The position numbers and the translations under genes are program-made. Below the pieces are notes generated by a model. That model had not been told where the DNA came from. It saw only the letters and a list, made by a program, of their open reading frames with translations, and searched no databases. DNA of 38,830 nucleotides from an uncultured Methylophilaceae bacterium (lineage in GTDB: Bacteria; Pseudomonadota; Gammaproteobacteria; Burkholderiales; Methylophilaceae). Positions within the stretch are counted from its first letter, which is position 1. Each line of letters opens with the position of its first letter. The stretch covers positions 1 to 38,830 of the forward strand of contig CAZAHP010000001.1 of assembly GCA_964484985.1 (NCBI GenBank). Reading direction: 5' to 3'. This document shows, in pieces, positions 13,978-31,763 of this stretch.

Positions 13978-14005
13978 TTCTTGCTATCCTTTTTCATAGA
14001 TTGCT

Positions 14006-14032: not shown

Positions 14033-14039
14033 AAATCAC

Positions 14040-14435: not shown

Positions 14436-14567
14436 AATAAAAAACTCCTAACGAAATTAAAAAAAGTAAACTGGCAAATGTCAGCCATAAGGTAATGCTT
14501 GCTTGTTGCTTGCACCCTTTTGACGAATACCATTATGATGGTAGACGTATTACTAATAGCTTACGGC

Positions 14568-14589
14568 AACATTACAATTTTGTAATGTT
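14568..14589. promoter_or_regulatory. CusR/CopR-type copper box in the divergent promoter region
   Basis: Perfect palindrome AACATTACAA-TT-TTGTAATGTT. It resembles the E. coli CusR box AAAATGACAANNTTGTCATTTT and lies between divergent cusRS and the cus efflux operon. Confidence 0.7.
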
Positions 14590-14650
14590 GGGTAATTGGC
14601 CTGCTTACGTGCAACAATTTGCATGTTGATAAATGTCTGAAGAGAAAAAG

Positions 14651-17559: not shown

Positions 17560-17653
17560 GTTACAGTCTCGTCGTTTTTAGTTTTAGTTACCCACTAACC
17601 GCGTGGAAACAAAATTTTAGAGTTTGACTCAACCCTAATTTGTTAACAAAGGT

Positions 17654-17680
17654 AAAAAACCGCCACGAGGGCGGTTTTTT
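17654..17680 (-). terminator. rho-independent (bidirectional-looking) terminator after the helicase gene
   Basis: aaaaaa-CCGCC-acgag-GGCGG-tttttt, immediately 3' of stop 17682. Confidence 0.8.
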
Positions 17681-17681
17681 A

Positions 17682-20033
17682 TTAATGCAACAACTGTTTT
17701 GCTAATGCTACTTCTATACTATCACCTGACTGATTTAAGACATCTAAACCAGAATCAGGCATATCACCAGATGTTGATTGTGATACTGCTATTTTCTTTG
17801 CCATAAGTTCTAAACACTGCATCTGTGCGCTGTCCTCATAACCTAAGTACCACACTTCTACATCTTCTTCTTGACCGATCCGCCAACTTCTACGTGCAGC
17901 TTGCTGTACGGTGTAAACGTTATAGCCACTTTGCATAAAGACGATAGTAGGAAACTCCAACATATCAAGACCCGTTTTAACAAGCTCTTGGTTCGTGATA
18001 ATAATATCCACTCCCCTATCCACCTGGTCAAACAGCCAATCTTCACGCTTAACAGCATCAACGCTAGATCTTAATACAGCTACTTTAAAGCCTTCTTTTT
18101 CAAGAAAACCTTTAAGTCTTGCAGCTGTATCACGCTTACCCGTGTAAGTCGTATAGACTAAAACACGGCGGCCACGTAACTTATTAGATCTACAGATTTC
18201 CAATAATTCTTGCTCTTTTGGAGTAAGCGTATTGTCATCAAATATTTCCACCAAGTAAGCAATTTGCTCTTTGGTTCTAGGATGTCTGACAAGCTCATCC
18301 CTGAAACAAGTATCTGGCCATGCAAGCAATACATTTAAAACCACACCTAGTAAGCTGGTATCACCTTTACGAAGCGCCTCTCTCAGCTCTCCAGTTAAGG
18401 TTGCACTGAGTGAGTGATACATTGCACGCATCTCACTCGTCATCAGCACTTCTTTAAAGTACTCTTGATATGGCGGTAAAATATCGCCACCAATATCTTT
18501 GAGCTTTAAAAATACTGTGATTGGTAAAATATAACGCATGATCCCCATCGGACTAAAGCCTGGTCCTTTGGATGTTCTATGAGCTACAGTATTACCACGC
18601 GCAGTACGATGTGAACCACCTTCCGTTTCCTTATAAATATCTTTAAGAATACCGTGCTCACGCATGAAGCCCATTGATGCTGTACCAAGTGTGTTTCGTT
18701 CGTTATAGTCAAATCCATCTTCGATCATCATTGACGGATTCAAACGGTGCAACAAATAGAACAAATCATCAGCATAACCACCCATTAGCGTACCAGTTAG
18801 CAACAGGATCTTTTGACACTTCGCTGCTAATACACCCATGGCTTGGCCTTGAGCCGAACTTTCATTCTTGTACTCATGCCCTTCATCAACGATTAACAAG
18901 CCAAAATAGCCTTGTGGTAAGTATCGTTTGATAAATTCAGTAGGTTGGTAACCGCCCTGGCCAAACGAAAATTCTATGTTTGCCATTGCTCGCTCCATTC
19001 TACGTGCTTGCCTGTCATTGAAATACAGCTCACCATCTTCATCCATTAAGTTGATGAACTCATAAACGTTGTCGTTAAGCATTCCAGATAACATGTCAGC
19101 ACCGAACTTATCTAATAAGTTAGCAGCCGTTTTATCGCCTATGGTTGGAATTTGGCATAGGCTTTTGGCCACCAATTCTTTAGTGTTCATAGGTTGGCCA
19201 TTTTTACTGACCAATGTCCATAAACGCTCTCCACAGTCACGTTCTGCCACACGTGAAACACCATCCTCACTTGCAACTTTACGAAACACTTTATGCTGAC
19301 AAGAGGCGCGTTTCTCATTGAGAATTGCTCCAGCCATCAATGCTGAGACTGGGTTCCCATCATCATCGAGTAATAAACCGCCACAACTAGGGCAAGCGGC
19401 ATACCGAACTCGTTGCTTATGTTCACCTTCACCTACTAGCATTTTTCTAATAGAAAATGCAGGTTTCCAATTGAAACCCATACGCATGCGTACACGCCCC
19501 ATGATAAAAAACTCAGGCACTTGTGGCTTGCATTGCATAGCACGCAACTCTAAAAGCTTGCGTAAGGTATCAGGTCCGTTCAGTATCCAAACACGCGCAT
19601 TATGTACGGTAGCTTTGATTTCTCTACGCCACTTATAGACTAAATGCGGTGGTGAAATAACAAGTGACCTTGTGTAACCCTCTTCGTGTAATACCGCTGC
19701 AGCCGCGATAGCCATCATCGTTTTACCTGTGCCCATTTCGGCATTGATAATCGCTGCAGGTTGCTTATGATCTATCAACAACTTTGAGACAGCCTGGACA
19801 ACTTCTTGCTGTGGCTCAAATGGTTTTCTAAGCAATCCCTCCATCAATTCTTTACGAACTAAATCAGGGTTTCCATCATAAATTGATGGATTTTGCTTTT
19901 GAACCGCTTCTAATAAACCATGCCCAAACTCGGCAATAAACTGGCTCAGTGGTATTACTTCTTCAGCTGCACCTTCTCCATCTAAACGTTCTGCTAAAGC
20001 AGTGTCGTCATCTTCAAAATATTGCGTTGCCAT
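17682..20033 (-). CDS. SNF2/DEAD-like superfamily-2 helicase with a Zn-ribbon-containing insertion
   Basis: Walker A AEMGTGKT, DEGH box (LLIVDEGHEYKN), motif VI QQAARRSWRIGQ. About 280 aa lie between motifs I and II, including CPSCGG...C. Confidence 0.9.
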   Translation of the reverse strand: MATQYFEDDDTALAERLDGEGAAEEVIPLSQFIAEFGHGLLEAVQKQNPSIYDGNPDLVRKELMEGLLRKPFEPQQEVVQAVSKLLIDHKQPAAIINAEMGTGKTMMAIAAAAVLHEEGYTRSLVISPPHLVYKWRREIKATVHNARVWILNGPDTLRKLLELRAMQCKPQVPEFFIMGRVRMRMGFNWKPAFSIRKMLVGEGEHKQRVRYAACPSCGGLLLDDDGNPVSALMAGAILNEKRASCQHKVFRKVASEDGVSRVAERDCGERLWTLVSKNGQPMNTKELVAKSLCQIPTIGDKTAANLLDKFGADMLSGMLNDNVYEFINLMDEDGELYFNDRQARRMERAMANIEFSFGQGGYQPTEFIKRYLPQGYFGLLIVDEGHEYKNESSAQGQAMGVLAAKCQKILLLTGTLMGGYADDLFYLLHRLNPSMMIEDGFDYNERNTLGTASMGFMREHGILKDIYKETEGGSHRTARGNTVAHRTSKGPGFSPMGIMRYILPITVFLKLKDIGGDILPPYQEYFKEVLMTSEMRAMYHSLSATLTGELREALRKGDTSLLGVVLNVLLAWPDTCFRDELVRHPRTKEQIAYLVEIFDDNTLTPKEQELLEICRSNKLRGRRVLVYTTYTGKRDTAARLKGFLEKEGFKVAVLRSSVDAVKREDWLFDQVDRGVDIIITNQELVKTGLDMLEFPTIVFMQSGYNVYTVQQAARRSWRIGQEEDVEVWYLGYEDSAQMQCLELMAKKIAVSQSTSGDMPDSGLDVLNQSGDSIEVALAKQLLH

Positions 20034-20038
20034 CGTGC

Positions 20039-20100
20039 TCTCCTAAAATAAAAAAAGGGAGCACGACCCCGAATGGGCAGTAACTCCCCATCGGGTTAAA
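20039..20100 (-). promoter_or_regulatory. short leader module A (UAACCC box, terminator-like hairpin, U7, SD)
   Basis: Minus strand: UUUAACCCGAUGGGGAGUUACUGCCCAUUCGGGGUCGUGCUCCCUUUUUUUAUUUUAGGAGAGCACGAUG. Confidence 0.8.
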
Positions 20101-20113
20101 ACAAATTTAAATA

Positions 20114-20659
20114 CTAAATCTTAATTAAAAGATTGGTCTCAATATACTCATACAACTGAAAATCAGGCATGCTCTGCTTTGCATTTTCGTACTCAACAAC
20201 TAATGCATTCAACAGTTGGCCAACTTTAGTTATATTCAGTGATATTTCTTTATGGTTTAGGGTATCGCTACCATCCCCAGTTGAGAAATAATCAGCTTCA
20301 TTTGAACAATGCTCGATAACGTTATTGAATGCCTGGAGCAATGGATCTGAGCTTTCAGGTACGTCATCATCTTCAATGTTGTATTGCAAACCTTCCTCAG
20401 CAGGTATCTCAGTGACAAAATACCCTAGACGATTTACATAATGCCAGCCATTAACAATTAACCATGAACTTTCCTCACTATCAATAAGCGTCCAAATAGT
20501 GAGTGGATTGATTTTATTTTGCTCTAGGATGAATTCATATTCTTGACCATAAGTCTCAAACATGTGGCCATCATAAGAAGCATTATTATCAAGGTGGTTC
20601 TTGACTGGTTTAAATTGTTCCCAGAACTGATCATCTGTTAACTTAACTAATTGATTCAT
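20114..20659 (-). CDS. acidic hypothetical protein
   Basis: 181 aa, own SD behind module B, D/E-rich; no family recognised. Confidence 0.7.
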   Translation of the reverse strand: MNQLVKLTDDQFWEQFKPVKNHLDNNASYDGHMFETYGQEYEFILEQNKINPLTIWTLIDSEESSWLIVNGWHYVNRLGYFVTEIPAEEGLQYNIEDDDVPESSDPLLQAFNNVIEHCSNEADYFSTGDGSDTLNHKEISLNITKVGQLLNALVVEYENAKQSMPDFQLYEYIETNLLIKI

Positions 20660-20665
20660 GGTGTA

Positions 20666-20720
20666 CTCCTAATAAAATAGGGTGCACCATGCCCAAAGGG
20701 TGGTTACACCCTTGGGTTAG
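20666..20720 (-). promoter_or_regulatory. short leader module B
   Basis: CUAACCCAAGGGUGUAACCACCCUUUGGGCAUGGUGCACCCUAUUUUAUUAGGAGUACACCAUG. Confidence 0.75.
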
Positions 20721-20734
20721 TATTAAATTTATAT

Positions 20735-21325
20735 TTAGCTAATTAAACGTGCTGTGCCTTCGTTGATTGATCCAATTAAATAGCCGCGCTGAAACACATA
20801 ATTGTCATTGAATATGATCCGCTTACCTTCTTTTCTGGATACTCTAAATTGATTGCTTGAGTATCCATTTTTGAAAGTGACTGGTTGCTCAAATTCAATA
20901 AGACTGCCAACGGTTAACGAGGCTATGAATTTGCTAGCGTTCTTTTTACTTTGGAGCCTTTGATGACAACGTTCGCGCCACTCATTGGCATACTCATGAA
21001 CAGTAGGCGTTAGCTTATTTAAAATGCGTAGTGGGCAATTGTAAGCACATGGACCACAACTTTCATCCATATCCTTATAGCAAATGTTGTTGCGGCTATC
21101 TTTGTGTAAAGTCACCAAAGTAATTGACGCAAATACCCTACGCTCACCCGTTTGTTTGTTGATGCATTCAACAGCTGCATAGAATTCACTGAAATTAACG
21201 AAAGCACTATCTAATACTTTATACGTATTAGGACTTTCATCACTCCAAGTAAATACGCCGCTACTTAAAAGAAAATCCGACACCGATTGTTCTTTCTGCT
21301 TATAGGTACAAGTCCATCCCATCAT
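20735..21325 (-). CDS. hypothetical Cys-containing protein
   Basis: True start MMGWTCTYKQ at 21325 behind AAGGAG. The 36 N-terminal residues in the ORF track are read-through of repeat C. Confidence 0.7.
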   Translation of the reverse strand: MMGWTCTYKQKEQSVSDFLLSSGVFTWSDESPNTYKVLDSAFVNFSEFYAAVECINKQTGERRVFASITLVTLHKDSRNNICYKDMDESCGPCAYNCPLRILNKLTPTVHEYANEWRERCHQRLQSKKNASKFIASLTVGSLIEFEQPVTFKNGYSSNQFRVSRKEGKRIIFNDNYVFQRGYLIGSINEGTARLIS

Positions 21326-21328
21326 GCT

Positions 21329-21567
21329 CTCCTTAAAATGAAAAAAGGGAGCACGACCCCGAATGGGCAGTGAACTCCCCATTGGGTTAAAACAAACTTC
21401 ATGTAATCCTGGTCTTGCGACCGTTGTTTTCAAGGACTGAACAACTTTAAAAGCAACACTTACGGTGTTAATCGAGCTTTAACTGAAAGCTAACAGTGAG
21501 ACACTCATAAGTACCAGGTACTTTTCTCAAATACACGCTTGGCCATGTGTTTGAGAAAAGCCCCTGA
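21329..21567 (-). ncRNA. long structured leader element C (short module plus hairpins P4-P1 plus overlapping hairpins T3/T2/T1)
   Basis: 21320-21505 is identical over 186 bp to 24961-25146. Hairpins GGUC-GCAA-GACC, GUUGUU/AACAAC, AACAC/GUGUU, AGCUUU/AAAGCU. Confidence 0.75.
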
Positions 21568-21586
21568 AGGCTTTTCTTATTCTACA

Positions 21587-22243
21587 TCAACTACATTTTG
21601 TTACCACTACATCTTGAATACTACCGATTTCGTCATCCAACTTCCAACTGGATGCAATAAAATCATCTGACTTAACCATTAGCAAAGCATGCTCTCGTGC
21701 GCTTTCTTCACTGCCTGCTTTAATAAGCAGCTCACATGACTCTGAAGCTAAGCGCATTACCAGCACTTTGTAGTTGCCTACGTCATTTGGTATTGCAAAG
21801 CCATTATTTCCATAAGTAGCTTTTGTTGGCCACTCATAGACTAACTCGTAATTAAGTATGACAAAATCATCTGCATTAGCAGGTAACGTTAATGCCTGCA
21901 GCTCACCTTCGCCTGCACTTGCATAATAATAAATGCTGTCATCATTAACGCCATAACCATCATGTTGATTGTGTTCGGTAAACGTTCCAAATGAAATGTA
22001 CACATCACTTACAGTGCCCTCATCCAACAATTGAATCCGACACTCTGCACCTATAGGTTCTTGGCTTTGTGTATAGAGTGTATCTTTACCCACAAAATCA
22101 TCCATCTCCCATTTTCCTTGAAATAGTGGGTCATCAAAGACTTCTCGTGCTAACTTTAAGGACTCTTCCATATTAATAGCATCTATGCTGATAGTGCATG
22201 ACTCAGTTAAAGCATGTGTAGCTGTTACTAAAAACTTACTCAT
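21587..22243 (-). CDS. acidic hypothetical protein with N- and C-terminal copies of an ESC..I.A...EES...A motif region
   Basis: 218 aa. Compare LTESCTISIDAINMEESLKLAREVFDDPLFQGKWEMDDFVG with ASESCELLIKAGSEESAREHALLMVKSDDFIASSWKLDDEIG. Confidence 0.7.
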   Translation of the reverse strand: MSKFLVTATHALTESCTISIDAINMEESLKLAREVFDDPLFQGKWEMDDFVGKDTLYTQSQEPIGAECRIQLLDEGTVSDVYISFGTFTEHNQHDGYGVNDDSIYYYASAGEGELQALTLPANADDFVILNYELVYEWPTKATYGNNGFAIPNDVGNYKVLVMRLASESCELLIKAGSEESAREHALLMVKSDDFIASSWKLDDEIGSIQDVVVTKCS

Positions 22244-22249
22244 TTTATT

Positions 22250-22307
22250 CTCCTGAAAATATCAAGAGAAACCCCGCCTCGCGGTGGGGTTCCGCTTGAC
22301 GGGTTAA
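22250..22307 (-). promoter_or_regulatory. short leader module D (variant with GCGA-tetraloop hairpin)
   Basis: UUUUAACCCGUCAAGCGGAACCCCACCGCGAGGCGGGGUUUCUCUUGAUAUUUUCAGGAGAAUAAAAUG. Confidence 0.7.
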
Positions 22308-22320
22308 AATATATATACGT

Positions 22321-23418
22321 CTATCGAATACTTACAATCTGGCCGTAACCTTCGCCTGGCGTGAAATCTATTCCAGTAATGGCTGGTATAAATTTGTCAG
22401 TAAAAGTTCTGGTTTCTGAAACTACTCCATTGTCACTTGTTTCGTGTGTCACAACCAGATCACGTTGCTTAAAGGTATCCCCTTTAATTAACAGCCTTCT
22501 ACCTGATTCAGACTCTACTACACCTGAGATCTGGCCAGCTGCAAGCGCTAAGGCTAAATGCCAGTTGGACAAAGCACGTAATGGTTGCCTAGGCTTGTCT
22601 TCAGCTACCGTAAACATCGTGTTAAATTGTGACCAAAGCGTATTTTTGCTTAACCTATTCAGTTCAGACTCTAATTGTCGGCCATCAATACGAATGGCTG
22701 TGAATTTAAGGTCTGCCTCCCGTATTTCTGGGACTAAATAGGGTTCTGCTTGCCAAAATTCTGGCAACACTGGGGCTTCACCAGTACCGCATAGCTCAAG
22801 AAGTTTTTGTGTTTCCACATCAACCATTTCAGCACGACGCTTCACACCAAAGATCACACACTGCTTAAATTGCTTTTCAGGTGACATAAACACTTTCACT
22901 TGCGAAAAATTGCGAGCGATCATGCTGGAATACTCTTTATCCAGTACATAGTACGGAACAATGAGCACCATCACGCCACCAAACTGCAACCAAGGCATTG
23001 TCTTACGGTAAAACTGCTTTTCAAGTCGATCACCCACTGTTTTACTGCCACAAGTGGCAGCTTTGTCAGAAACAACATCGCCGTATGGTGGGTTTAGGAA
23101 CAATAAACTTTGGCTACGCGCAGTAATAAAAACATCGTTAATATCACAGTGTGCAACCTTATCAAGCAGTGTCTTGGAATGCCAGGCACGCTCTTCATCG
23201 TACTCAACTCCCAATGCACTTACAGTAGATCCGCATTCAGTAAGATGATGCTTTATCTCAGCCAAAGCGGTTCCCTCTCCACAACAAGGATCCAGTATGC
23301 TTAGATTTGAACCACTAATATCCAAAGCATTGATTATTCTGGCCAACGTCATTTCATCCGTTGGGTAATACCCGTTTTTCAAAAAATTATGCGCTAAGCG
23401 CGAAAACATTAAAGCCAT
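22321..23418 (-). CDS. orphan N6-adenine DNA methyltransferase (motif I then NPPY; possibly DUF6094-type)
   Basis: ILDPCCGEGTAL (SAM motif I) and FLNPPYG (motif IV). No adjacent endonuclease-like ORF. Confidence 0.85.
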   Translation of the reverse strand: MALMFSRLAHNFLKNGYYPTDEMTLARIINALDISGSNLSILDPCCGEGTALAEIKHHLTECGSTVSALGVEYDEERAWHSKTLLDKVAHCDINDVFITARSQSLLFLNPPYGDVVSDKAATCGSKTVGDRLEKQFYRKTMPWLQFGGVMVLIVPYYVLDKEYSSMIARNFSQVKVFMSPEKQFKQCVIFGVKRRAEMVDVETQKLLELCGTGEAPVLPEFWQAEPYLVPEIREADLKFTAIRIDGRQLESELNRLSKNTLWSQFNTMFTVAEDKPRQPLRALSNWHLALALAAGQISGVVESESGRRLLIKGDTFKQRDLVVTHETSDNGVVSETRTFTDKFIPAITGIDFTPGEGYGQIVSIR

Positions 23419-23424
23419 GATGTA

Positions 23425-23480
23425 CTCCTAAAAAATAGAGACACCATGCCCTTGTGGGGATGATGTCCCCACAGGGTTAA
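23425..23480 (-). promoter_or_regulatory. short leader module E
   Basis: UUAACCCUGUGGGGACAUCAUCCCCACAAGGGCAUGGUGUCUCUAUUUUUUAGGAGUACAUCAUG. The stem needs two G-U pairs on the minus strand. Confidence 0.75.
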
Positions 23481-23482
23481 AA

Positions 23483-23719
23483 TTAATACTGACCTAAATT
23501 ACATATCACGCCTTTAGAATAAGAATATGGTCCTATGCTGAGAGGCTGTATATGATGGCCACTACCTTTGAGTGATACACACAGCCGTCTAAATTGCTCG
23601 ACAGTGCATGGCTCAATCACAAATGCGGTTTTATCAAAATCTGTTTGCTCGACTGTTACATCAGAGCCACAAACTTTAACGGCCGCATGATTGACTTTCA
23701 TTAGATCTAGGTTAGTCAT
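23483..23719 (-). CDS. small hypothetical protein
   Basis: 78 aa; 8-nt overlap with the upstream gene (translational coupling). Confidence 0.6.
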   Translation of the reverse strand: MTNLDLMKVNHAAVKVCGSDVTVEQTDFDKTAFVIEPCTVEQFRRLCVSLKGSGHHIQPLSIGPYSYSKGVICNLGQY

Positions 23720-24194
23720 GTGTTACCTGGTGATGAGGATGATTTATAAGTTTCAACTGCTCAAATTCATCAAACTGCATGAACCAACTATCCAAACTAC
23801 AACCTGAGTACACATCTTGAGCTGCAATCGATAAACCGTCTGGAAAGATCCGTAGGTGTATTTCATTCACTCTGACTATCGGCATATCTGCTAAAAGCGT
23901 TTGACTGCGATTTTCGCCTATGCAATTTTGAGCAAACATCAGCTCTATATCACTTGGTATCTCATTGAAGTAATGGCAGTCTATTTGCTTACCATGGTGA
24001 CGAAGTGAGTTAACACCTGCCAAAATGGATATATCAAACAAACCGAGCTTGTCATGCAGCGCACTTGCTTCTTTTACAAATGGTAATAGATCCTGCAAAT
24101 CGAAGCTCAACACTAAATAGCGTGGAAGCGCGTCATTATTGGTGACTTTTGCATCGTAAAAAGTCTTGGTGACGATTTTGTAAATGCTAGTCAT
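23712..24194 (-). CDS. hypothetical protein
   Basis: 160 aa; 8-nt overlap with the upstream gene. Confidence 0.65.
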   Translation of the reverse strand: MTSIYKIVTKTFYDAKVTNNDALPRYLVLSFDLQDLLPFVKEASALHDKLGLFDISILAGVNSLRHHGKQIDCHYFNEIPSDIELMFAQNCIGENRSQTLLADMPIVRVNEIHLRIFPDGLSIAAQDVYSGCSLDSWFMQFDEFEQLKLINHPHHQVTHD

Positions 24195-24966
24195 GATTGA
24201 CCACCAACTTCAATAGTGTGGTGTTAGTTTCAACCTCACTATCATTAGCTGCTACGGGGTAATCATCTTCGTAGAAATCATCATTACTATGACCAAACTC
24301 ATCAATGCAAATTTGACGAAAATCACCGTCTTCATCATCAACCATGCCACCATTATTACAGTATGCCACGCCTGCAAAACCACCGCCTTCATCTGCATAA
24401 GCCATCCTGAAGCTTAATTCAGGAAACGCTGCGCTCATTGCTTCAAGTACTGGATAGGCTGGCGACCAGGCTGTTTCATAGTAACAACGGAAAACGGTGT
24501 CGGAACTATCATCAGCTAATGCGTGGTTGTATGCATCCCACTTAGTCCCCCAGTTCACTATGCTCCATTCATACCAAGTTTCGTACCCATATTTTGCAAT
24601 ATTGGTAACCACTTTATGACCTAACTCAACTGCTTCAGGTTTATGTTTTGCGAACCAAGCCAAAAACTTCGGCCGAGAATGATGTAGGGCATTGATATTA
24701 GTCTGTGAAAGCTGCTCTTCTTGCATCAGCTTAATAACCCAAGGGTAATTCAGCACCGTTTTAAAATCACCTGCGACCACTTCTTTACCTAAGCTTGATT
24801 CTGATCCGCATGTAATTTGGAGTTCTTCAGGCATTGGAATGACACGGTTAAATACTAAACAATGTTCTACTTCACCAATTTTTTCACAAAACTTGGCTTT
24901 GAACGCTGCAATGTCGGCTGCATTACCGTTTACTTCTAAATTAGTCCAAACGTGGTTAGGCATCAT
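24187..24966 (-). CDS. DUF1281-like (Api92-like ferredoxin-fold) protein with acidic C-terminus
   Basis: MMPNHVWTNLEV..., WYEWSIVNWGTKWDAYN, ETAWSPAYPV. True start at 24966; the ORF-track N-terminus is repeat read-through. Confidence 0.7.
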   Translation of the reverse strand: MMPNHVWTNLEVNGNAADIAAFKAKFCEKIGEVEHCLVFNRVIPMPEELQITCGSESSLGKEVVAGDFKTVLNYPWVIKLMQEEQLSQTNINALHHSRPKFLAWFAKHKPEAVELGHKVVTNIAKYGYETWYEWSIVNWGTKWDAYNHALADDSSDTVFRCYYETAWSPAYPVLEAMSAAFPELSFRMAYADEGGGFAGVAYCNNGGMVDDEDGDFRQICIDEFGHSNDDFYEDDYPVAANDSEVETNTTLLKLVVNHD

Positions 24967-24969
24967 GCT

Positions 24970-25218
24970 CTCCTTAAAATGAAAAAAGGGAGCACGACCC
25001 CGAATGGGCAGTGAACTCCCCATTGGGTTAAAACAAACTTCATGTAATCCTGGTCTTGCGACCGTTGTTTTCAAGGACTGAACAACTTTAAAAGCAACAC
25101 TTACGGTGTTAATCGAGCTTTAACTGAAAGCTAACAGTGAGACACTACTAAGTACCAGGTACTTTTCTTAAACACACGCATGACCATGTGCTTGAGAAAA
25201 GCCCCTGAAGGCTCTTCT
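24970..25218 (-). ncRNA. long structured leader element F
   Basis: 186-bp identity with element C, then diverged T3/T2/T1 hairpins with a G-U compensated T1. Confidence 0.75.
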
Positions 25219-25225
25219 TACTACT

Positions 25226-25543
25226 TTACTTGGTTAATGATAATGCCATTAAATATTTATGGCATTCCTGGCATCCACAAGGCTTAACATAGCCTGACTT
25301 AAATATTTCTAAGCATTGGCTTATATTGTCCTCATGAATACTGTGTGTTTCTGACTGCGTATTGATATATCCATATTTCAAATGCACCCAGTAACCATCA
25401 CCATCCTTACCTTGACTACGATAATCTTCAATTTCATTGATGTACATTGCATAGGGTTTTAGGCTTGTTGGTATTGTTACGTTCTTAGTCACTTTCAGCT
25501 CAACACGTAAGTTATAAGCTAGCATATCTACCGAATCACTCAT
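25226..25543 (-). CDS. small hypothetical protein
   Basis: 105 aa, ATGA overlap with the upstream gene, CGCQEC near the C-terminus. Confidence 0.6.
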   Translation of the reverse strand: MSDSVDMLAYNLRVELKVTKNVTIPTSLKPYAMYINEIEDYRSQGKDGDGYWVHLKYGYINTQSETHSIHEDNISQCLEIFKSGYVKPCGCQECHKYLMALSLTK

Positions 25544-26718
25544 GCTGCAGCCCTTCCGTATCTTTGCTCAATAAGTTGCTTAATTTCGCTCAGTGGTTTT
25601 GGCTCAAAATACAGATCCAATTCAACATGTAATGGCACTTGTACGGCGGTCTTACTGCTACCCTCATATAAATCACCTTTGACATGAATCTGTGTACCCA
25701 CTAACTCACTAATTGAAATATAGCCCAGCTCAGCACACATTAAATCGCCATTGAGTATTGCGTAGCCAAATGCTTGCGACACGCCATCCTCAATATCTTT
25801 TTCAATAATGTACCAATCTGAATCACCTAAAAAGTAATGCAAACTCACCACTGGATCGTTTTCATCTTCACAGTCGTAAGTTTTAGGCATGCTGCCAATT
25901 CTATAAGCCATTTCTTTGAATTTTTCCTCAAAGAAACTACCCTCTTCACCTTTGCAACATTCCAGCATCGATAAATACTGTTGAGTAGATAAATAAGGCC
26001 TTAACGTAGCTTTTGCCTGCTTGCTGATGTACTGTGAATCTGATGTTGGTTGTTTACTCACGATACTATTGTGATTAACCAGACTTGCATCAAACTGTTG
26101 GCCATCAATACCGATCAATCCTGACTTCACCATGCTAGATATGATCTGGGTAAACTCTGCATCGATCACCAACTTGGCCGCGCTAATTTTACCTATTGGT
26201 GGGTAGTTGATCGTGTTCATCCAAGTGACGCAAATTTCATTATTGGAATGCATGATTGCAGACTGCCAATCATCCAACAATGGAACTGGGGAAAGATTCT
26301 TGTAAAGCCCCCATACGCCTCTTAAAAGCTGTTCACGTACACCTACATCACCCCAAGGTTGATTAAGCACCACCCAGCCTGCTTTTGTGGCTTTGCTAGG
26401 ACTAATCAGTACAGGATCGTAAATCCAAAGATGCGTTAGATTGCCAAATAGATTATCTTTAGGAAACCGACCACTATAGACCTCAAAACGATCTGGATTA
26501 CCAACTTGTACACTATGCGGCGTTTCTTTTTTATCGTTACAATTGCGTAATGAAAAATTAGAAATGCCGCCACTATTGGGTTTTAATTGCATGGAAGCTT
26601 TGAACTGCTGAATTGCAGTATCTCGGCCATAAACGGATAGAAACATTAACTCACCTGATTCATTCCGCAGACAAGCATCCACAAATAAATCAGCCAATTC
26701 AACGACTTTATAAAGCAT
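25540..26718 (-). CDS. protein with C-terminal DUF2958-like domain and unknown N-terminal 250 aa
   Basis: LHYFLGDSDWYIIEKD...AFGYAILNGDLMCAELGYISISEL matches the remembered DUF2958 pattern. Start at ATG 26718. Confidence 0.75.
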   Translation of the reverse strand: MLYKVVELADLFVDACLRNESGELMFLSVYGRDTAIQQFKASMQLKPNSGGISNFSLRNCNDKKETPHSVQVGNPDRFEVYSGRFPKDNLFGNLTHLWIYDPVLISPSKATKAGWVVLNQPWGDVGVREQLLRGVWGLYKNLSPVPLLDDWQSAIMHSNNEICVTWMNTINYPPIGKISAAKLVIDAEFTQIISSMVKSGLIGIDGQQFDASLVNHNSIVSKQPTSDSQYISKQAKATLRPYLSTQQYLSMLECCKGEEGSFFEEKFKEMAYRIGSMPKTYDCEDENDPVVSLHYFLGDSDWYIIEKDIEDGVSQAFGYAILNGDLMCAELGYISISELVGTQIHVKGDLYEGSSKTAVQVPLHVELDLYFEPKPLSEIKQLIEQRYGRAAA

Positions 26719-26725
26719 GGTATCG

Positions 26726-26780
26726 CTCCTAATAAAAAGGGATACCTGCCCTGATGGGGATGGTATCCCCAATGGGTTAA
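26726..26780 (-). promoter_or_regulatory. short leader module G
   Basis: UUAACCCAUUGGGGAUACCAUCCCCAUCAGGGCAGGUAUCCCUUUUUAUUAGGAGCGAUACCAUG. Confidence 0.75.
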
Positions 26781-26793
26781 AGTAATCTATTGA

Positions 26794-27204
26794 TTAACTA
26801 CGAAGCTTTTCAGCAATTTCAACTGCCACACCCCGCCAACCTTCTGGTGAGATGAGTCCATTTCGCATTGATTCCAATTCTTCAATTGGAGTATTGGCAA
26901 CCAAGTTTGCAAATTTGCTTACTGCATCCATAACGAACATTTGAGCCAATGCACCAAATTTGGAATACTCCATAATTCCTGTGATTTTCTCAATGTTTGT
27001 TGGGTTATTAGACGATGAGTAGCTGCTATGGCTACTTTCATTCATCAAAGCTTCGGTTAAACTACCATTTTCCGATTCGGCATCAGTTGCTGCCTGCGCA
27101 TCACTTGTTGTACAGCCAAAACTTTCTAATTGCTGTACGCGAAGTTGATATAGCTGCTGTTCATCCAACGCACCCAGTTTGATTTTAATTGATGTAATTC
27201 TCAT
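26794..27204 (-). CDS. acidic helical hypothetical protein
   Basis: 136 aa, SD GGAGAGC behind element H. Confidence 0.65.
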   Translation of the reverse strand: MRITSIKIKLGALDEQQLYQLRVQQLESFGCTTSDAQAATDAESENGSLTEALMNESSHSSYSSSNNPTNIEKITGIMEYSKFGALAQMFVMDAVSKFANLVANTPIEELESMRNGLISPEGWRGVAVEIAEKLRS

Positions 27205-27210
27205 AGCGCT

Positions 27211-27447
27211 CTCCTAAATATAAAAAGGGAGCACGACCCCGAATGGGCAGTGAACTCCCCATTGGGTTAATACAAACTTCATGTAATCCTGGTCTTGCGA
27301 CCGTTGTTTTCAAGGACTGAACAACTTTAAAAGCAACACTTACGGTGTTAATCGAGCTGTAACTGACAGCTAACAGTGAAACTGATTTTCTAAAAAATGC
27401 GTTGGCCACACTTTTTAGAAAACCCACTCATAGAGTGAGAGTTTTCT
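27211..27447 (-). ncRNA. long structured leader element H
   Basis: Same as C except for a compensatory P1 change (AGCUGU/ACAGCU) and different T2/T1 hairpins of the same layout. Confidence 0.75.
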
Positions 27448-27452
27448 TGATT

Positions 27453-27743
27453 CTATTTCAACATACCACTGCCATGACAAGCATCACATACTTCATCATC
27501 AGGCATCACTTCATCTGGGTAATAGTGGCCAGGAACATAAACGTTCATAAATCCACAACCTGAGCATTTATTACACACTGATTGATGACTGTACAACTCA
27601 ACACTGATGGTTCTATTGGGATGTTCGGTTTTTTTACTTTTTTGCGTCATACACTTTGCATGTGATTGCGGTGTAGCTGTTAAATAGGATTTAATACCTG
27701 ACTTAACGTTAACCGCAACTAGGTGATAGAGAGATTCAATCAT
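27453..27743 (-). CDS. small protein with DnaJ-type CxxCxGxG zinc-finger motifs
   Basis: CNKCSGCGF and CDACHGSG; 8-nt overlap with the upstream gene. Confidence 0.65.
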   Translation of the reverse strand: MIESLYHLVAVNVKSGIKSYLTATPQSHAKCMTQKSKKTEHPNRTISVELYSHQSVCNKCSGCGFMNVYVPGHYYPDEVMPDDEVCDACHGSGMLK

Positions 27744-28341
27744 GATTCACAGCCTTTCTAGCCCAAGACTGTGTAATTGCATCAAACAGATAACCATGCT
27801 CTTTTAATACATCACGCTGCTGACGGAATAAAGCCCTATCTACCGTTGGATCAAGTTTTACTGGTATGTGATTAGCTATTTGATAAATTAACTCAACACC
27901 AACAATAGGCACTAAGTTTTCATAATCTTTAACAGCGTCATTAGTCAGTTTGTATGAATCTGCGACTACCGTTTTAGACTCTGTAGTATTTTCAGACTCT
28001 ACGTTAGTGCTAGGCTGGACTGTAGATTGTGCAGCTGCAGCTTCGTTAACTGGATCAGGTTCAGGTACCGTAATATCTACTTCACCTTCGTCTGCAGTAT
28101 CAAGCCTAATGTCTGTCACTTTAGCTCTAATATCAGTCGTTGATTTTCCACGCCAAACATAAGAGCTTAAATAGAAGCTTTCTATAACAAACTCACCTTC
28201 ATAGCGCCCCTCCTCGAATTGATCAAGAATGGATTCTTTGACTTTGAATTCACCTATTGAAGTGCTTAAATCTCCAGTACAAAACTTGCCATTTGCCCCA
28301 GAAATTTGTTTTACTGTTAATACTCCGTTAATTGTAATCAT
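27736..28341 (-). CDS. DUF3275-like ICE protein
   Basis: MITINGVLTVKQISGANGKFCTGDLSTSIGEFKVKE...EGRYEGEFVI resembles remembered DUF3275 N-termini. Start at ATG 28341. Confidence 0.7.
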   Translation of the reverse strand: MITINGVLTVKQISGANGKFCTGDLSTSIGEFKVKESILDQFEEGRYEGEFVIESFYLSSYVWRGKSTTDIRAKVTDIRLDTADEGEVDITVPEPDPVNEAAAAQSTVQPSTNVESENTTESKTVVADSYKLTNDAVKDYENLVPIVGVELIYQIANHIPVKLDPTVDRALFRQQRDVLKEHGYLFDAITQSWARKAVNHD

Positions 28342-28347
28342 ATTGCT

Positions 28348-28404
28348 CTCCATAAAATAAAAAAGGGAGCAATCCCATAAGGGCTTGGCTTCCCCTTTGG
28401 GTTA
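28348..28404 (-). promoter_or_regulatory. short leader module I
   Basis: AUAACCCAAAGGGGAAGCCAAGCCCUUAUGGGAUUGCUCCCUUUUUUAUUUUAUGGAGAGCAAUAUG. Confidence 0.75.
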
Positions 28405-28440
28405 TGTAAAAATGTAAACTTCAAACAAAGGATAAGTCCC

Positions 28441-28644
28441 ATGTTGAAGTCAGGAAATACCATCAGATTAAACAATGCAGATATTGATAGAATTGCAGGA
28501 CTTGCTGGTGCCAGTCCTCAAGGCATAAATACCGCACAAGGTTTAAATAATTTTATAAGTTTTCACTTAACTCAGTATTCTAATAAAACGCCAGAAGAAA
28601 AACTTCTAGCGTTATTATTAGAATCTGAAAAAGTAGCTATCTAA
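28441..28644 (+). CDS. possible small plus-strand ORF (only plus-strand candidate in the island)
   Basis: 67 aa, AAGGA 8 nt upstream, converges on and overlaps 28637..28834 by 8 nt. Could equally be non-coding. Confidence 0.3.
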   Translation: MLKSGNTIRLNNADIDRIAGLAGASPQGINTAQGLNNFISFHLTQYSNKTPEEKLLALLLESEKVAI

Positions 28645-28834
28645 TTACGTCAGTGCCTAATGTTGTCATCGCCTGACAATAAACATCCCAAAGCCCTTGC
28701 CTAAGTTCTGGGTCTGCATTTAACTTATCTACTAATCGTTTTGCACCCTCTTTAGTAGATGCCAAATCTAGCAAATATGAATGTTGTTTTTTCTGCCATT
28801 GCACATCAGAAATAAAAGTTTTTGGTGTAACCAT
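28637..28834 (-). CDS. small hypothetical protein
   Basis: 65 aa, canonical GGAGAGCAUCAUG start context behind element J. Confidence 0.55.
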   Translation of the reverse strand: MVTPKTFISDVQWQKKQHSYLLDLASTKEGAKRLVDKLNADPELRQGLWDVYCQAMTTLGTDVIR

Positions 28835-28840
28835 GATGCT

Positions 28841-29065
28841 CTCCTAAATATATAAAAAGGGAGCACCACCCCGAATGGGCAGTGAACTCCCCATTGGGTT
28901 AATACAAACTTCATGTAATCCTAGGTATTGCTACCCGTTGTTTTCAAGGACTGAACAACTTTAAAGCAACACTTACGGTGTTAATCGAGCTGTAACTGAC
29001 AGCTAACAGTGAAAACGTTTAATGGCTTTCTAAAAAACACATCTATTTGTGTACTTTAGAAAGCC
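28841..29065 (-). ncRNA. long structured leader element J
   Basis: P4 is GGUA-GCAA-UACC (compensatory relative to C/F/H). T2 is GGCUUUCUAAA/UUUAGAAAGCC. Confidence 0.75.
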
Positions 29066-29397
29066 CCCAGGGCAACCCTAGAGACTGAAAGCCTGCACCA
29101 TCCAATCGTATTAGATCGTGACGCGTAATAGGCAACAAACGCGGATTTAGCGGCATGGCCGCAAACGGCGTGGAAGTCTAGGTCTCCACAACCCATAGAT
29201 TCAACTTAAGCATAACAGGAGTTGAAACCAGTGATATTGATCCGTGTGATCACAGAAAAATATCACTGGTTTCCGAATAGGGAAGACAAACTTTCGGTCT
29301 GTCTCGGGATTGAGTACAAGGTTCACGAGGCCCGTACAATTGCACCATTGAATAACGAGACGAAATTCATTCCAGTATGAATGGCAGAACTGGACAT
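29066..29397 (-). other. orphan GC-richer structured non-coding segment
   Basis: No credible ORF. 14-bp perfect stem 29224-29237/29260-29273. GUACGGG/CCUUGUAC helix (29314-29337) with G-U pairs only on the minus strand. Confidence 0.4.
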
Positions 29398-29535
29398 AAA
29401 GCAACACTTACGGTGTCAAACGCGCTAACTTAGCGAACGAGAAAATTATTCGGTGAATTTTGTTAGTTTGGGAACTTCACTTATGAGTTATCCCATAAGT
29501 GAAATCCCCAAGGGAGATTTCAAAAACCAGCTTTG
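29398..29535 (-). repeat. partial (distal-half) copy of the long element plus terminator-like hairpins after the DUF3577-like gene
   Basis: aaagcaacacttacggtgt (29398-29416) is identical to the P2 region of C/F/H/J. Followed by hairpins ttcacttat/ataagtgaa and atcccc/gggagat. Confidence 0.55.
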
Positions 29536-29537
29536 GC

Positions 29538-30407
29538 TTATTCAGCTTGGGCTAATTGAGTTTCATTTTCTTCAACTTGATTCGTGTTTTGCTCATTATC
29601 ATCGGCTTCAGAAGAAGCTAATGTTTCAGTAAGCAATGGGGTACGAACGCCATCTAAGAAAACTGCACTTATTGCGGTAAGAGCACCAATAAACTTAGCA
29701 CCTTTATCGCCAGCTTTATTAACACCAACATCTTTGGTATAAGTAAAATCAAATTTTTTGAGATTACTTACTTCAAAACGGGCAATAACTGCTGTTTCTT
29801 TACTGCTGATTTTTTGCAAGTGTTGCATGTTGCTAACTAAAGTTGTATCAATATCGCAGCTAATACGAGTGGTCTCAGCTTTAATACCTAAGTCTTTGTT
29901 ATATTCACCATGTAGCGCAGCTATAGAACAAGACATTGCGTTGGTTCTGAATGATCTAATATCATTAATATAACCAAAACCGAAAGTACCAAGTTTACGA
30001 GTATCATTAACAGGTAACTCTTCAAACGCACTGCCATTTACTGAGACATTAACTAAGTCCAATAAACGACCTTTAGCCATAAAACCTTTATCACCTTTTT
30101 GATGTTCACCAACGTCTTTATCATAAGTGAAATCGCTAATAGATAAATCACTTGCAATCCATTTAGCTTTAATTACAGCATTTTTATCAAAATGTGGCTT
30201 GATAAGCTCCAAAGCTTTAACAGCTTTAGTACTTACAGCAATCACATCAACTGATAAATCGCCAGAACGTAAAGTACAAGCATAAAAAGGTTTCCCTTTT
30301 GCTGGCTTAACCAAACGGATACGGTTAACGTAACCTTCGCTAATGTTTGTTAAATCAAAAAAGCGAGATTCGTTAGTTGTGTTAGTTGAAGTTGTAGTGT
30401 TAGTCAT
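29538..30407 (-). CDS. tandem-duplicated DUF3577-like protein (possible ssDNA-binding-type fold)
   Basis: FFDLTNISEGYVNRIRLVKPAKGKPFYAC resembles remembered DUF3577 N-termini. The internal repeat is marked by DFTYDKDVGEHQKGDKG and DFTYTKDVGVNKAGDKG. Acidic tail. Confidence 0.75.
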   Translation of the reverse strand: MTNTTTSTNTTNESRFFDLTNISEGYVNRIRLVKPAKGKPFYACTLRSGDLSVDVIAVSTKAVKALELIKPHFDKNAVIKAKWIASDLSISDFTYDKDVGEHQKGDKGFMAKGRLLDLVNVSVNGSAFEELPVNDTRKLGTFGFGYINDIRSFRTNAMSCSIAALHGEYNKDLGIKAETTRISCDIDTTLVSNMQHLQKISSKETAVIARFEVSNLKKFDFTYTKDVGVNKAGDKGAKFIGALTAISAVFLDGVRTPLLTETLASSEADDNEQNTNQVEENETQLAQAE

Positions 30408-30413
30408 GATGCT

Positions 30414-30596
30414 CTCCTAAATATAAAAAAAGGGGAGCATTACCCGATTGGGAAATGAACTCCCCAATGGGTTAAAACTAAACATAAAATGAAATCCTAG
30501 AGTTTGCACTCCGTCGTTTACAAGGACTGAACGACATTAAGGCGGTCATTTGCGTTAACCAAACGAACTGAAACTGACAGTCAACAGTGAAACTAA
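30414..30596 (-). ncRNA. long structured leader element K (most diverged copy)
   Basis: P4 GAGU-GCAA-ACUC, P3 GUCGUU/AACGAC, inner stem CAUU/AAUG; all compensatory relative to C. Confidence 0.7.
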
Positions 30597-30602
30597 GGCA
30601 GC

Positions 30603-30629
30603 TTAATAACGAAAAGCCAAACGAGTCAA
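30603..30629 (-). promoter_or_regulatory. weak sigma70-like promoter candidate upstream of element K
   Basis: Minus strand TTGACT-N15-TATTAA (spacer short, or TTTGAC-N16). Confidence 0.25.
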
Positions 30630-30694
30630 AGACTAATTAATGCAATACGCATTTTCCGCAAATAATTTTAGTTGTCAATAGTTAAACATTGTTT

Positions 30695-30961
30695 TTAGAC
30701 AAAATCCCGCTCGAAATTAAATGTTTTTAATTCCAACGCATGAACCCACTTCTCATCCATTTCCACATCAAAAAAGACGGTGTCACTGGTGGTATCATGA
30801 ACTGCCTCTGATTTAATTTCGTACAGCACTTTACGTTGCCAGCCTTCAGTTCCAACAATATGCACGCGACCTAATGTAGGGTGCATAGCTTCAAGGCCTA
30901 CTGCACCGATTAAAGTTGTTAAATCAATTTGATCCATTTCTACTTGTGAGTAATGTTCCAT
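30695..30961 (-). CDS. small hypothetical protein
   Basis: 88 aa; AAGGA SD; 3-nt gap to the upstream gene. Confidence 0.6.
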   Translation of the reverse strand: MEHYSQVEMDQIDLTTLIGAVGLEAMHPTLGRVHIVGTEGWQRKVLYEIKSEAVHDTTSDTVFFDVEMDEKWVHALELKTFNFERDFV

Positions 30962-30964
30962 TAT

Positions 30965-31162
30965 TTATCCTTTAGCTTTCTCAAATAATTTTAGAGTATC
31001 GTTAACCTTAGTAATCTCGGCCTTTGCTAGCCCTACTACTGATGCGGCTACCTCTACGCTACTGCCATGCACTAATACCAACCTAGCGGCTTCACTCAAT
31101 TGAAAGCTAAGCTTTCTGGAAAGTAGGCGTTTATCAAATTCTTCGTTTGTCAGTTTTATCAT
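30965..31162 (-). CDS. small hypothetical protein
   Basis: 65 aa, tightly packed in a 3-gene operon. Confidence 0.55.
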   Translation of the reverse strand: MIKLTNEEFDKRLLSRKLSFQLSEAARLVLVHGSSVEVAASVVGLAKAEITKVNDTLKLFEKAKG

Positions 31163-31166
31163 TATT

Positions 31167-31763
31167 TCAATTTTTATTAATTCCAGCCAGCATTTTAGCT
31201 CTTGTTAGCAACTCAGGTGATTCAAGCACAATACTAAGCGCACTTCTTACCATGTCATGACGTTTTGCTTCAGGTATATCCCACTGACGATAAAGTAATT
31301 TGTATAACTCGCCATTAATTGTGACCTGGATCACGCCACCACCACTCAGTGCTTTTCTTTTTTCACGTAAACGTTGCTGCCTGACAGCTGTTAAAAGTCG
31401 TTTGCGTTCTAGGCCAGCTCCCTTGTCATTCGCAGGAAAGTTTTCATCCAGCCATTGATTTGTCTGTGTAACCAGATTATCAAAGTATTCATCAGCGTTA
31501 AAGTTGAGTGATTTGTTACTGCTTTCTTTTTCCCATCCTTCAATCCATGACTTTTGTAATACCCGCCATGAAGCCCTCACCTCTGCAGCCACTGGGTCTG
31601 TAGGTCGATCTGCATCAAGTGCTAGGCCTACACGCTCTGACATTACAAATTTACTGAATGGATCACGCTCCTCTTCATCGAATCGCCTACTGATCCATTG
31701 AATTACGAACCAATAATTAGAGGTGTCATACAAATCTAAAATTGTAGATTGCTTACGTGCCAT
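31167..31763 (-). CDS. hypothetical protein (basic/helical)
   Basis: 198 aa, first gene after the palindrome-containing intergenic region. Confidence 0.65.
   Translation of the reverse strand: MARKQSTILDLYDTSNYWFVIQWISRRFDEEERDPFSKFVMSERVGLALDADRPTDPVAAEVRASWRVLQKSWIEGWEKESSNKSLNFNADEYFDNLVTQTNQWLDENFPANDKGAGLERKRLLTAVRQQRLREKRKALSGGGVIQVTINGELYKLLYRQWDIPEAKRHDMVRSALSIVLESPELLTRAKMLAGINKN

Follow-up and report, generated by a model that had tools for sequence, protein, structure and literature searches.

The radC RNA was described in 2010 as an orphan motif in the 5' untranslated regions (UTRs) of DNA-handling and anti-restriction genes, with its function left unassigned (Weinberg et al. 2010, PMC2864571), and we found no later work on it in the searchable literature. 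The STAXI motif (RF01728) is a tandem array of two or three copies of one pseudoknot in Enterobacterales, while the Frpo/ssi sequences are single-stranded DNA (ssDNA) hairpins of ~300 nucleotides (nt) that rebuild a double-stranded -35/-10 and are repeated in plasmid leading regions (Samuel et al. 2024, PMC11541004). A hotspot of defense and anti-defense genes has been described in Pseudomonas islands, with DUF3275 at its boundary (PMC12629846). Here, we analyze 38,830 nt of DNA from an uncultured Methylophilaceae bacterium (contig CAZAHP010000001.1; this whole stretch is referred to as the window), an element of the pKLC102/PAPI-1/ICEclc type of integrative and conjugative element (ICE). On its minus strand, from ~30.6 to 20.0 kb, an array of gene cassettes is punctuated by eleven copies (A to K) of a structured leader, hereafter the module. 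The module encodes two pairing schemes, both conserved; it is specific to the sense strand and locked to the start codon of the gene that follows.

From 5' to 3', the module comprises the ACCC box (a), GGGG(A) with the loop of a first hairpin (b), CCC (c), GGG (d), a 3' arm ending in CUCCC (e), a U-rich linker of ~13 nt, and GGAG..AUG (f), which holds the Shine-Dalgarno (SD) sequence; its length to the start codon is ~75 nt. In the first scheme, S, hairpin P1 pairs the ACCC box, the next 3 nt and GGG with CCC-NNN-N-GGG (a:d and b:c), and hairpin P2 pairs the 3' arm with GGAG..AUG (e:f), with the U-rich tract as its loop. Modeling predicts that the SD and usually the start codon are buried in this state. 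In the second scheme, T, b would pair with e as an outer stem around a CCC-N4-GGG mini-hairpin (c:d), producing a terminator-shaped structure followed by the U-tract and leaving the ACCC box and SD free. The two schemes are mutually exclusive, and each conserved G/C block has two partners. A previous reading of this DNA from its letters alone (the sequence-only reading) had pointed to a GC-rich hairpin plus U-tract resembling an intrinsic terminator; this structure does exist as one possible fold, T, but it is one of two exclusive folds and not the minimum of the full leader. The same reading treated UAACCC as a box kept throughout the layout. ACCC is indeed conserved across the family, whereas UAA is lineage specific (relatives carry CAACCC or CCACCC), and the box is not free-standing but the pairing strand of P1. 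A role for the UAA as a functional stop codon was rejected because it is not conserved in relatives.

A minus-strand search with the pattern TAACCC-N3-8-GG-N20-45-TTTT returned 11 matches (0.55 expected from shuffles), all at sites reported by the sequence-only reading. A covariance model, R1, was seeded with 12 copies (A, C, H, I, J, and K of the window and six from two relatives). Run over the entire window with filters off, R1 found these eleven copies and no others, the next best match having an expect value (E) of 0.28, and it recovered the five window copies outside its seed, although one of these, F, is identical to seed copy C. Copies C, F, H, J, and K lie directly 3' of a second element of ~110 nt, LE, with which they form a larger repeat. 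The copies and the genes or open reading frames (ORFs; lengths in amino acids [aa]) that they precede are as follows.

30405..30480, minus strand: module K, before the DUF3577 gene (29538-30407; Pfam); LE-linked; R1 87.6 bits; P1 plus P2 is the minimum-energy fold, z -4.8
28832..28907, minus strand: module J, before a 65-aa ORF; LE-linked; R1 90.9 bits; individual RNA fold
28339..28410, minus strand: module I, before the DUF3275 gene and an overlapping 96-aa ORF; R1 76.9 bits; fold z -2.9
27202..27275, minus strand: module H, before a 136-aa ORF; LE-linked; R1 86.1 bits
26716..26785, minus strand: module G, before the DUF2958 gene and a 105-aa ORF, 16 nt past the upstream stop codon; non-seed; R1 41.9 bits, E 4e-9; z -3.7
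24961..25036, minus strand: module F, before an Api92-like gene and two overlapping ORFs; LE-linked; non-seed; R1 91.6 bits, E 2.4e-22
23416..23485, minus strand: module E, before the DUF6094 methyltransferase gene; non-seed; R1 45.1 bits, E 6e-10; z -5.4
22241..22312, minus strand: module D, a divergent variant, before a 218-aa ORF; non-seed; R1 25 bits, E 1.4e-4; z -4.9
21320..21395, minus strand: module C, before the DUF6927 gene; LE-linked; R1 91.6 bits
20657..20725, minus strand: module B, before a 181-aa ORF; non-seed; R1 41.3 bits, E 6e-9; z -5.1
20031..20104, minus strand: module A, before the SNF2-type helicase gene (17682-20033; Pfam); R1 85.8 bits

In module D, the U-rich tail itself pairs with the SD. 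The central proposal of the sequence-only reading, a real, repeated and structured element at fixed register with SD and AUG, is supported, and the 4- and 8-nt gene overlaps that it described inside cassettes are real. Its division of the array into eleven cassettes also agrees with the relatives, which gain and lose cassettes at module boundaries. The claim that the module largely fills every gap between genes was too broad: the gaps before C, F, H, J, and K also hold LE and a terminator or hairpin region.

Relatives were collected as 80 loci with a DUF3275 protein profile. In these, R1 made 362 matches at E <= 1; among the matches listed, a single one was off the gene strand. At the stricter cutoff of E <= 0.01, ~61 of these loci were positive. 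Modules are present in the Pseudomonas aeruginosa plasmid pY89 (MOBH/MPF_G; locus L081) and in the ICE-like region of an Enterobacter plasmid (L082), where 11 of 11 module matches end exactly on start codons annotated by the Prokaryotic Genome Annotation Pipeline (PGAP), including those of DUF3577/STY4534 and helicase genes. The 150 best R1 matches (129 distinct) provided the set for covariation of S, as a model-fitted alignment of related sequences. P1 plus P2 was the minimum-energy fold in 20 of 20 diverse copies folded singly (z -2.4 to -6.4), and the SD was paired in the minimum-energy fold of 126 of the 129 distinct copies. S is the ground state of the full leader, averaging -32.2 kcal/mol compared to -23.1 kcal/mol for T. 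As long as f is untranscribed, T roughly equals P1 alone in stability or surpasses it: with the ACCC box blocked, T averages -20.6 kcal/mol (P1 alone, -18.7 kcal/mol) and is the stabler fold in 93 of the 129 copies, and in RNA lacking f it is the minimum-energy fold in 8 of 9 distinct window copies. T has the hairpin and U-tract of an intrinsic terminator, with an energy of -16 to -22 kcal/mol and, in the window, a U5-7 run after it.

Across the alignment, 90% of cells at positions joined in S are paired, compared to 44-60% with partners slid, and 317 cells carry double changes compared to 75 in shuffles, with none of 500 shuffles as high. Compensatory changes occur in 12 of 18 pairs; P2 has six pairs with double changes. 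At paired positions, G-U outnumbers A-C by 149 to 49 across the family, which upholds the earlier argument from G-U pairs that the sense strand is the one that folds. Because the S alignment was fitted to the model and a structure-blind alignment was too poor, alignment-free tests were added. Cognate e:f duplexes average -12.0 kcal/mol compared to -7.6 kcal/mol for non-cognate ones (4.4 better; 0 of 2000 permutations as low), and cognate b:e duplexes -12.7 compared to -9.3 kcal/mol (3.4 better; 0 of 2000 as low). With the invariant G/C cores removed and stricter de-replication, b:e retains an advantage (-2.29 versus -1.14 kcal/mol; 0 of 5000), and a same-sense control for the b:e test was null. 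The P1 loop resembles the post-SD spacer in cognate pairs only (2 of 5000). P1 is also asymmetric, with an a-b spacing of 3 nt and a c-d spacing of 4 nt in 112 of 129 copies, and it is this c-d spacing that gives the c:d mini-hairpin its 4-nt loop. Comparison of the family's sequences thus suggests that T is real but less constrained than S, its signal weaker but significant, with P1 and P2 covarying most strongly. As for a switch that sequesters the SD, ground-state pairing of SD and AUG is predicted and covaries, and an exclusive helix that would free the SD is present, its column-wise test being weak. The linker is 61% U and 6% G, and even where host GC reaches 55% or more, U makes up 60-84% at each of its positions; at least five U within the first 8 nt after the arm are found in 58-91% of family members, varying with host GC. 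This conserved U-richness fits a U-tract, a U-rich S1 or standby site, or a flexible loop equally well.

On the basis of the modeled folds, we lean slightly toward the module being a cis-acting bistable mRNA leader that gates expression of its cassette, in 5' UTRs as well as between cistrons. P1 would be completed before e emerges from the polymerase and by default would serve as a built-in antiterminator; the read-through transcript would be left with a masked SD and the cassette translationally off. Occupation of the ACCC box and of its G-poor 5' flank of ~16 nt could then tip the leader into T. Tipping after passage of the polymerase would unmask the SD, whereas tipping while the polymerase is on the U-tract would terminate transcription. 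The occupant might be a protein, an RNA, or a ribosome, or else the LE or radC domain upstream. From the DUF3577 gene through to the SNF2 helicase, no independently initiated cistron lacks this leader; a single factor could therefore control the entire variable array, whose genes are probably anti-defense or early genes, at the RNA level.

Several points weigh against this model. The two states pose a paradox, in that S gives read-through but no translation and T gives translation but is terminator-like; expression would therefore need post-transcriptional switching or antitermination. In modules without LE, the distance from the upstream stop codon to ACCC has a mode of 16-17 nt within a broad distribution, and opening of P1 by a terminating upstream ribosome was rejected as a trigger, since 16-17 nt is beyond the reach of the ribosome. 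The covariation counts for S rest on an alignment that was fitted to the model, and structure-blind alignment of 34 diverse copies (MAFFT with RNAalifold) was poor and recovered only b:c. For T, the column-wise test was weak (75.2% paired, 74.2% in shuffles), and invariant G/C triplets carry much of the fold; in copy D, T and SD masking are not mutually exclusive. Finally, that P1 forms first and persists is something we infer, and the nested-path barriers calculated by modeling (~19 kcal/mol from P1 to T, ~14 kcal/mol from T to S) are upper bounds that ignore pseudoknotted toehold paths between the P1 loop and the arm.

The shape of T invites a simpler alternative, in which the modules are plain intrinsic terminators overcome by processive antitermination, as in lambdoid early operons and by the put RNA of HK022, with LE or radC RNA as the cis antiterminator and P1 and P2 secondary. 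In the window, T is a GC-rich hairpin followed directly by U5-7; the U-rich linker is kept even in high-GC hosts; each LE-headed unit is preceded by a further terminator-like hairpin; LE and radC RNA are multi-hairpin elements between likely promoters and terminators; and the raw radC alignment of Weinberg has predicted-terminator lines in the module flank. Nevertheless, P1 and P2 covary far more strongly than T, and neither the ACCC box nor a helix with the SD and AUG would be required of a plain terminator. P1 is a direct competitor of T and would be complete earlier, U-richness extends over the whole 13-nt linker to the SD rather than its first positions only, and some family members lack a U-run right after the arm. 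We therefore regard terminators with antitermination as fairly unlikely. Cleavage could also part e from f, for example by RNase E in the P2 loop, making the module a mark for RNA processing or stabilization: the T hairpin would stabilize the upstream 3' end and the downstream SD would be freed. The 13-nt loop, single stranded, G-poor, and rich in U and A, is a plausible RNase E substrate, T offers e an intramolecular partner once f has been cut off, and all parts of the design as well as the intercistronic copies would be accounted for. However, the stems lack the length and regularity of a classical RNase III site, and the need for P1 with its strongly covarying a:d helix goes unexplained; processing as the main role seems to us unlikely.

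Upstream translation offers a route for the five LE-linked copies, which might be opened by a short upstream ORF (uORF) that leads to termination-reinitiation in this AT-rich lineage, as in tap/repA or repY/repZ. In C, F, H, J, and K, AGGA-N4-9-AUG, its AGGA resembling an SD, stands 13-16 nt 5' of ACCC and opens ORFs of 22-48 codons through the module, with 20-26 codons counted for C, F, H, K, and the L001 copies. These stop at UAG just before the SD (H and K) or at UGA overlapping the start codon as AUGA (C and F), the stops being 9-10 nt before AUG when not overlapping, whereas in J, and at L001:2801 and L002:12522 in two related loci, the frame runs into the gene. uORFs also occur at the copies of L001 and, in part, of L002. 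Six of the 11 window copies lack one, however, as do all but 8 of the 129 family members; high-GC relatives have AUC, AUU, or GUC at that position, and neither frame nor peptide is conserved, so a leader peptide was rejected as a family-wide feature. The uORF may give translational coupling in this lineage and is not general, and we would put little faith in it as what opens the five copies. Least credible of all, in our judgment, is an ssDNA element acting in ICE transfer or replication, be it a priming (ssi) signal, an Frpo-like promoter, or an attC-like site for cassette shuffling. The neighboring ssb, topB, helicase, and DUF3577 ("ICE replication protein") genes would suit such a role; the cassettes of relatives differ exactly at module boundaries, and consecutive intergenic occurrence resembles attC arrays (Weinberg 2017). 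Yet a helix covarying with the SD-to-AUG spacer is sensible only in mRNA, and G-U exceeds A-C 3:1 on the sense strand, whereas by the logic of leading regions it is the template strand that is transferred. A long hairpin able to rebuild a double-stranded -35/-10 is missing from the DNA fold; compared by eye, the module has no attC core, the window ORFs that were scanned include no integron integrase, and the module lies 5' of genes rather than 3'. The sequence-only reading had left the folding molecule as mRNA or the equivalent ssDNA; the sense strand holds, and the wobble bias and the presence of SD and AUG in a covarying helix disfavor ssDNA.

Five LE copies are found in the window.

30485..30595, minus strand: LE-K, R2 103.7 bits; covariation
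28909..29017, minus strand: LE-J, R2 106.1 bits
27277..27384, minus strand: LE-H, R2 100.5 bits
25038..25145, minus strand: LE-F, R2 95.6 bits
21397..21504, minus strand: LE-C, R2 95.6 bits

LE contains a pseudoknot in which a 5' CACUG pairs with the loop CAGU of hairpin H1, with compensated variants CACCG/CGGU and AACAG/CUGU. H1 is followed by hairpins H2, H3 (with a CAG-UCC-CUG apex), and H4 (with a tetraloop) and by a conserved 3' GGAUU. In related loci, the covariance model of LE, R2, identified 144 copies at E <= 0.01. Every one lies on the gene strand and abuts a module; 97.7% of cells are paired, double changes number 223 compared to 59 in shuffles, and G-U outnumbers A-C by 56 to 15. 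Pairing of the 3' GGAUU with the ACCC box was rejected by eye, the complementarity being inconsistent across LE types. Rfam 15 was searched across the whole window with gathering scores, across the array (19500-31500) with E <= 10, and in ten related loci. Neither the module nor LE had a match in any of these searches; no family at all matched the array at E <= 10, and the ten loci yielded only radC RNA, one sul1 RNA (RF03058; 50.7 bits, L064 20138-20190, at the edge of an Alcaligenes phenolicus locus), and a tRNA.

The regions upstream of LE hold further structures and a candidate promoter.

21505..21580, minus strand: cassette-end terminator-like hairpin GAAAAGCC-UUCA-GGGGCUUUUC, identified from sequence, repeat D1, RNA fold, and inverted repeat I2
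~25146-25221, ~27385-27445, and 29024-29065, minus strand: equivalent cassette-end hairpin regions
30651..30678, minus strand: candidate sigma-70 promoter TTGACA-16-GAAAAT, 10/12 consensus, upstream of LE-K at the head of the array

Together with a downstream GAGAAAAG-type segment, the U-tract of the cassette-end hairpin also builds a long hairpin, H0, in which it is the 5' strand. Cassette-end hairpin and H0 are a second pair of competing structures, and the same layout is seen in Thiobacillus loci. Promoter-like sites were not enriched over shuffles, which leaves weak support for the candidate at 30651..30678. Between the DUF3577 gene and LE-J lies a block of ~430 nt of conserved non-coding DNA (window ~29025-29444, minus strand), 88% identical to L001:1028-1452; a 44-nt piece of it is 100% identical in a Methylophilaceae metagenome-assembled genome (L002:8823-8866). 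It contains a 23-nt inverted repeat (29224-29246/29251-29273) and a partial LE fragment (29397-29426), and it adjoins the gene family named "ICE replication protein" by NCBI. This block could be a non-coding RNA, an oriT, or a replication site.

In the Pseudomonas and Enterobacter elements, the position held by LE in the window is taken by radC RNA (RF01754), for which Rfam gave eight matches of 75-124 bits, several directly 5' of modules (e.g., radC 15966-16113 followed by a module at 16117-16199 in L081).

L081 14596-14744, 15966-16113, 17221-17371, and 19392-19529: radC RNA RF01754, P. aeruginosa pKLC102-type plasmid
L082 7718-7860, 9652-9794, 10563-10705, and 14122-14271: radC RNA RF01754, Enterobacter ICE-like region

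After the match at L081 14596-14744 stands a module variant in which the P1 base CUCUUGAU/AUCAAGGAG replaces ACCC/GGG and which precedes a 5-codon mini-ORF. The flanks of the published raw radC alignment visibly hold the module, some with predicted-terminator lines, and the module is undescribed in that publication though it lies within those flanks. Like the module, radC RNA belongs to this ICE family, in the same orientation and with the same neighbors (DUF3577/STY4534, DUF3275, DUF6094 methyltransferase, and helicase genes); it differs in being an upstream domain whose Rfam model stops before the module, and the module was rejected as a part of radC RNA for this reason. RF01754 had no match in the window at gathering score or on the array at E <= 10; what the window array shares is the 5'-UTR setting at DNA-handling and anti-restriction genes, a matter of context and not of membership. 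LE as a divergent radC RNA was likewise rejected, as the LE model has no match at radC sites and the radC model is blind to LE. The PAPI-1 small RNA PesA was considered as a radC-plus-module transcript and rejected, its 5' primer lying ~600 nt upstream of the first radC of pY89 and its probe being absent; the published PesA 5' end maps with three mismatches to L081 13976-13992, just downstream of pilM in pY89. Sequence comparison indicates that radC RNA and LE are different upstream domains on the same module, which also stands alone between cistrons. The module might further serve as the shared expression platform of a so far unnoticed system of RNA-level control over the early or anti-defense hotspot in pKLC102/PAPI-1/ICEclc-type elements, with radC RNA in some lineages and LE in others as sensor or polymerase-modifying domains, such that one ICE or host signal flips a dozen leaders and licenses translation of the array, or its antiterminated transcription, on activation or entry. 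We consider this extension possible, though on balance doubtful.

Along the minus strand, from high to low coordinates, the window carries a gene of the AcaB (Pfam PF08900) regulator family, a helix-turn-helix gene, genes for SSB and HU, small unannotated ORFs, and topoisomerase III; next comes the array, from the DUF3577 gene to the SNF2 helicase, and then cus/P-type ATPase metal-resistance cargo. Modules are confined to the array within the window. Compared to L001, L002, and Thiobacillus, the backbone of DUF3577, DUF3275, DUF2958, methyltransferase, DUF6927, and helicase genes is kept, and lineage-specific cassettes are inserted at module boundaries (in the window, those of J, H, F, D, and B). 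A PHROGs search with the variable cassette proteins returned only families whose function is not known and one weak tail-assembly match (E 1.3e-4, for the 232-aa ORF). The 232-aa ORF (16861-17559, minus strand) follows the SNF2 helicase after a 122-nt gap without a module (17560-17681), and the module array ends at the helicase. Only one ORF inside the array is on the opposite strand (28441-28644, plus strand; 67 aa, no Pfam match). Located shortly upstream of module I, it shares 8 nt with the end of the J cassette ORF, and it is kept with the same neighbors in metagenome contigs with an identical DUF3275 protein. At the edge of the window, positions 38764-38794 and 38800-38830 hold a perfect direct repeat of 31 nt, TTCCAACACTTCGACCACCGAATTTACTGTT (36 nt start to start), which lies upstream of the AcaB-family regulator gene and may be an operator or iteron. 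The metal-resistance cargo next to the array (539-16734) contains no modules. It comprises a cusRS two-component system, RND efflux genes of the cusCFBA type, and two proteins that both have YHS domains, one a P-type ATPase and the other a SLOG-domain (LDcluster4) protein.

The kind of mechanism proposed here, with alternative helices, a terminator shape, and SD sequestration, is known. Judged by Rfam 15 and the searchable literature, no description apparently exists of the family, of its either/or geometry, of the way it recurs before each cassette in an ICE hotspot, or of its combination with radC RNA or LE, and two new RNA families, the module and LE, are defined here. ICEs related to PAPI-1, pKLC102, and ICEclc spread virulence, resistance, and catabolic genes, and an RNA switch before every cassette would point to overlooked post-transcriptional control of the hotspot. 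Such a module could explain how heterogeneous cassettes are swapped under uniform control. It also provides an experimental handle on the orphan radC motif, which would gain a function if the shared-platform proposal is true, and the presence of the family in P. aeruginosa elements makes it testable in a standard model organism.

The sequence-only reading had suspected identity with the STAXI, DUF3577, or ssNA-helicase motifs, an idea that is not borne out by the Rfam 15 search of the array. STAXI had no match in the window, on 19500-31500 at E <= 10, or in the ten related loci. It keeps similar genomic company (ssb, topoisomerase, anti-restriction, and integrase genes), and LE has one pseudoknot and tetraloop hairpins; in contrast to the tandem pseudoknots of STAXI, the module is two plain nested hairpins, and LE combines a single pseudoknot with three different hairpins. 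Copy K and its LE precede a DUF3577 gene, yet the DUF3577 RNA motif gave no match at E <= 10, nor any upstream of the STY4534/DUF3577 genes of L081 and L082; we infer its presence in Rfam 15 from its sibling DUF2800 (RF02960) of the same Weinberg 2017 set. Similarly, copy A precedes an SNF2 helicase gene without a match to the ssNA-helicase motif, presumably also in the library, and none was found before the helicase genes of L081 and L082. Like Frpo, the module is a dispersed repeat upstream of several early or anti-defense-type genes, all on one strand of a conjugative element. An Frpo-type ssDNA promoter was rejected, as the DNA fold of LE and module yields short hairpins only and the wobble bias points to the sense strand. 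Integron attC sites were rejected as well: the module is 5' of genes with SD and AUG inside, core sites were compared by eye, and a scan of 40 window ORFs turned up no integrase-family domain.

The RNase III sites of T7 early genes are likewise structured marks between the early genes of an incoming element, and they too could act as 3' stabilizers that free a downstream ribosome-binding site; the module differs in its shorter stems and in an ACCC-box switch geometry without a T7 counterpart. Riboswitch and attenuator platforms, such as the Bacillus subtilis trp leader, share with it exclusive, strand-sharing helices, a terminator-shaped hairpin with a U-tract, an SD-sequestering helix that uses the 3' strand of the terminator, and, in many copies, a structured domain upstream (LE or radC RNA). 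Unlike these platforms, in which both act in the same direction, the module makes terminator and SD masking alternatives to each other, and it is repeated eleven times in one array, also where no upstream domain precedes it.

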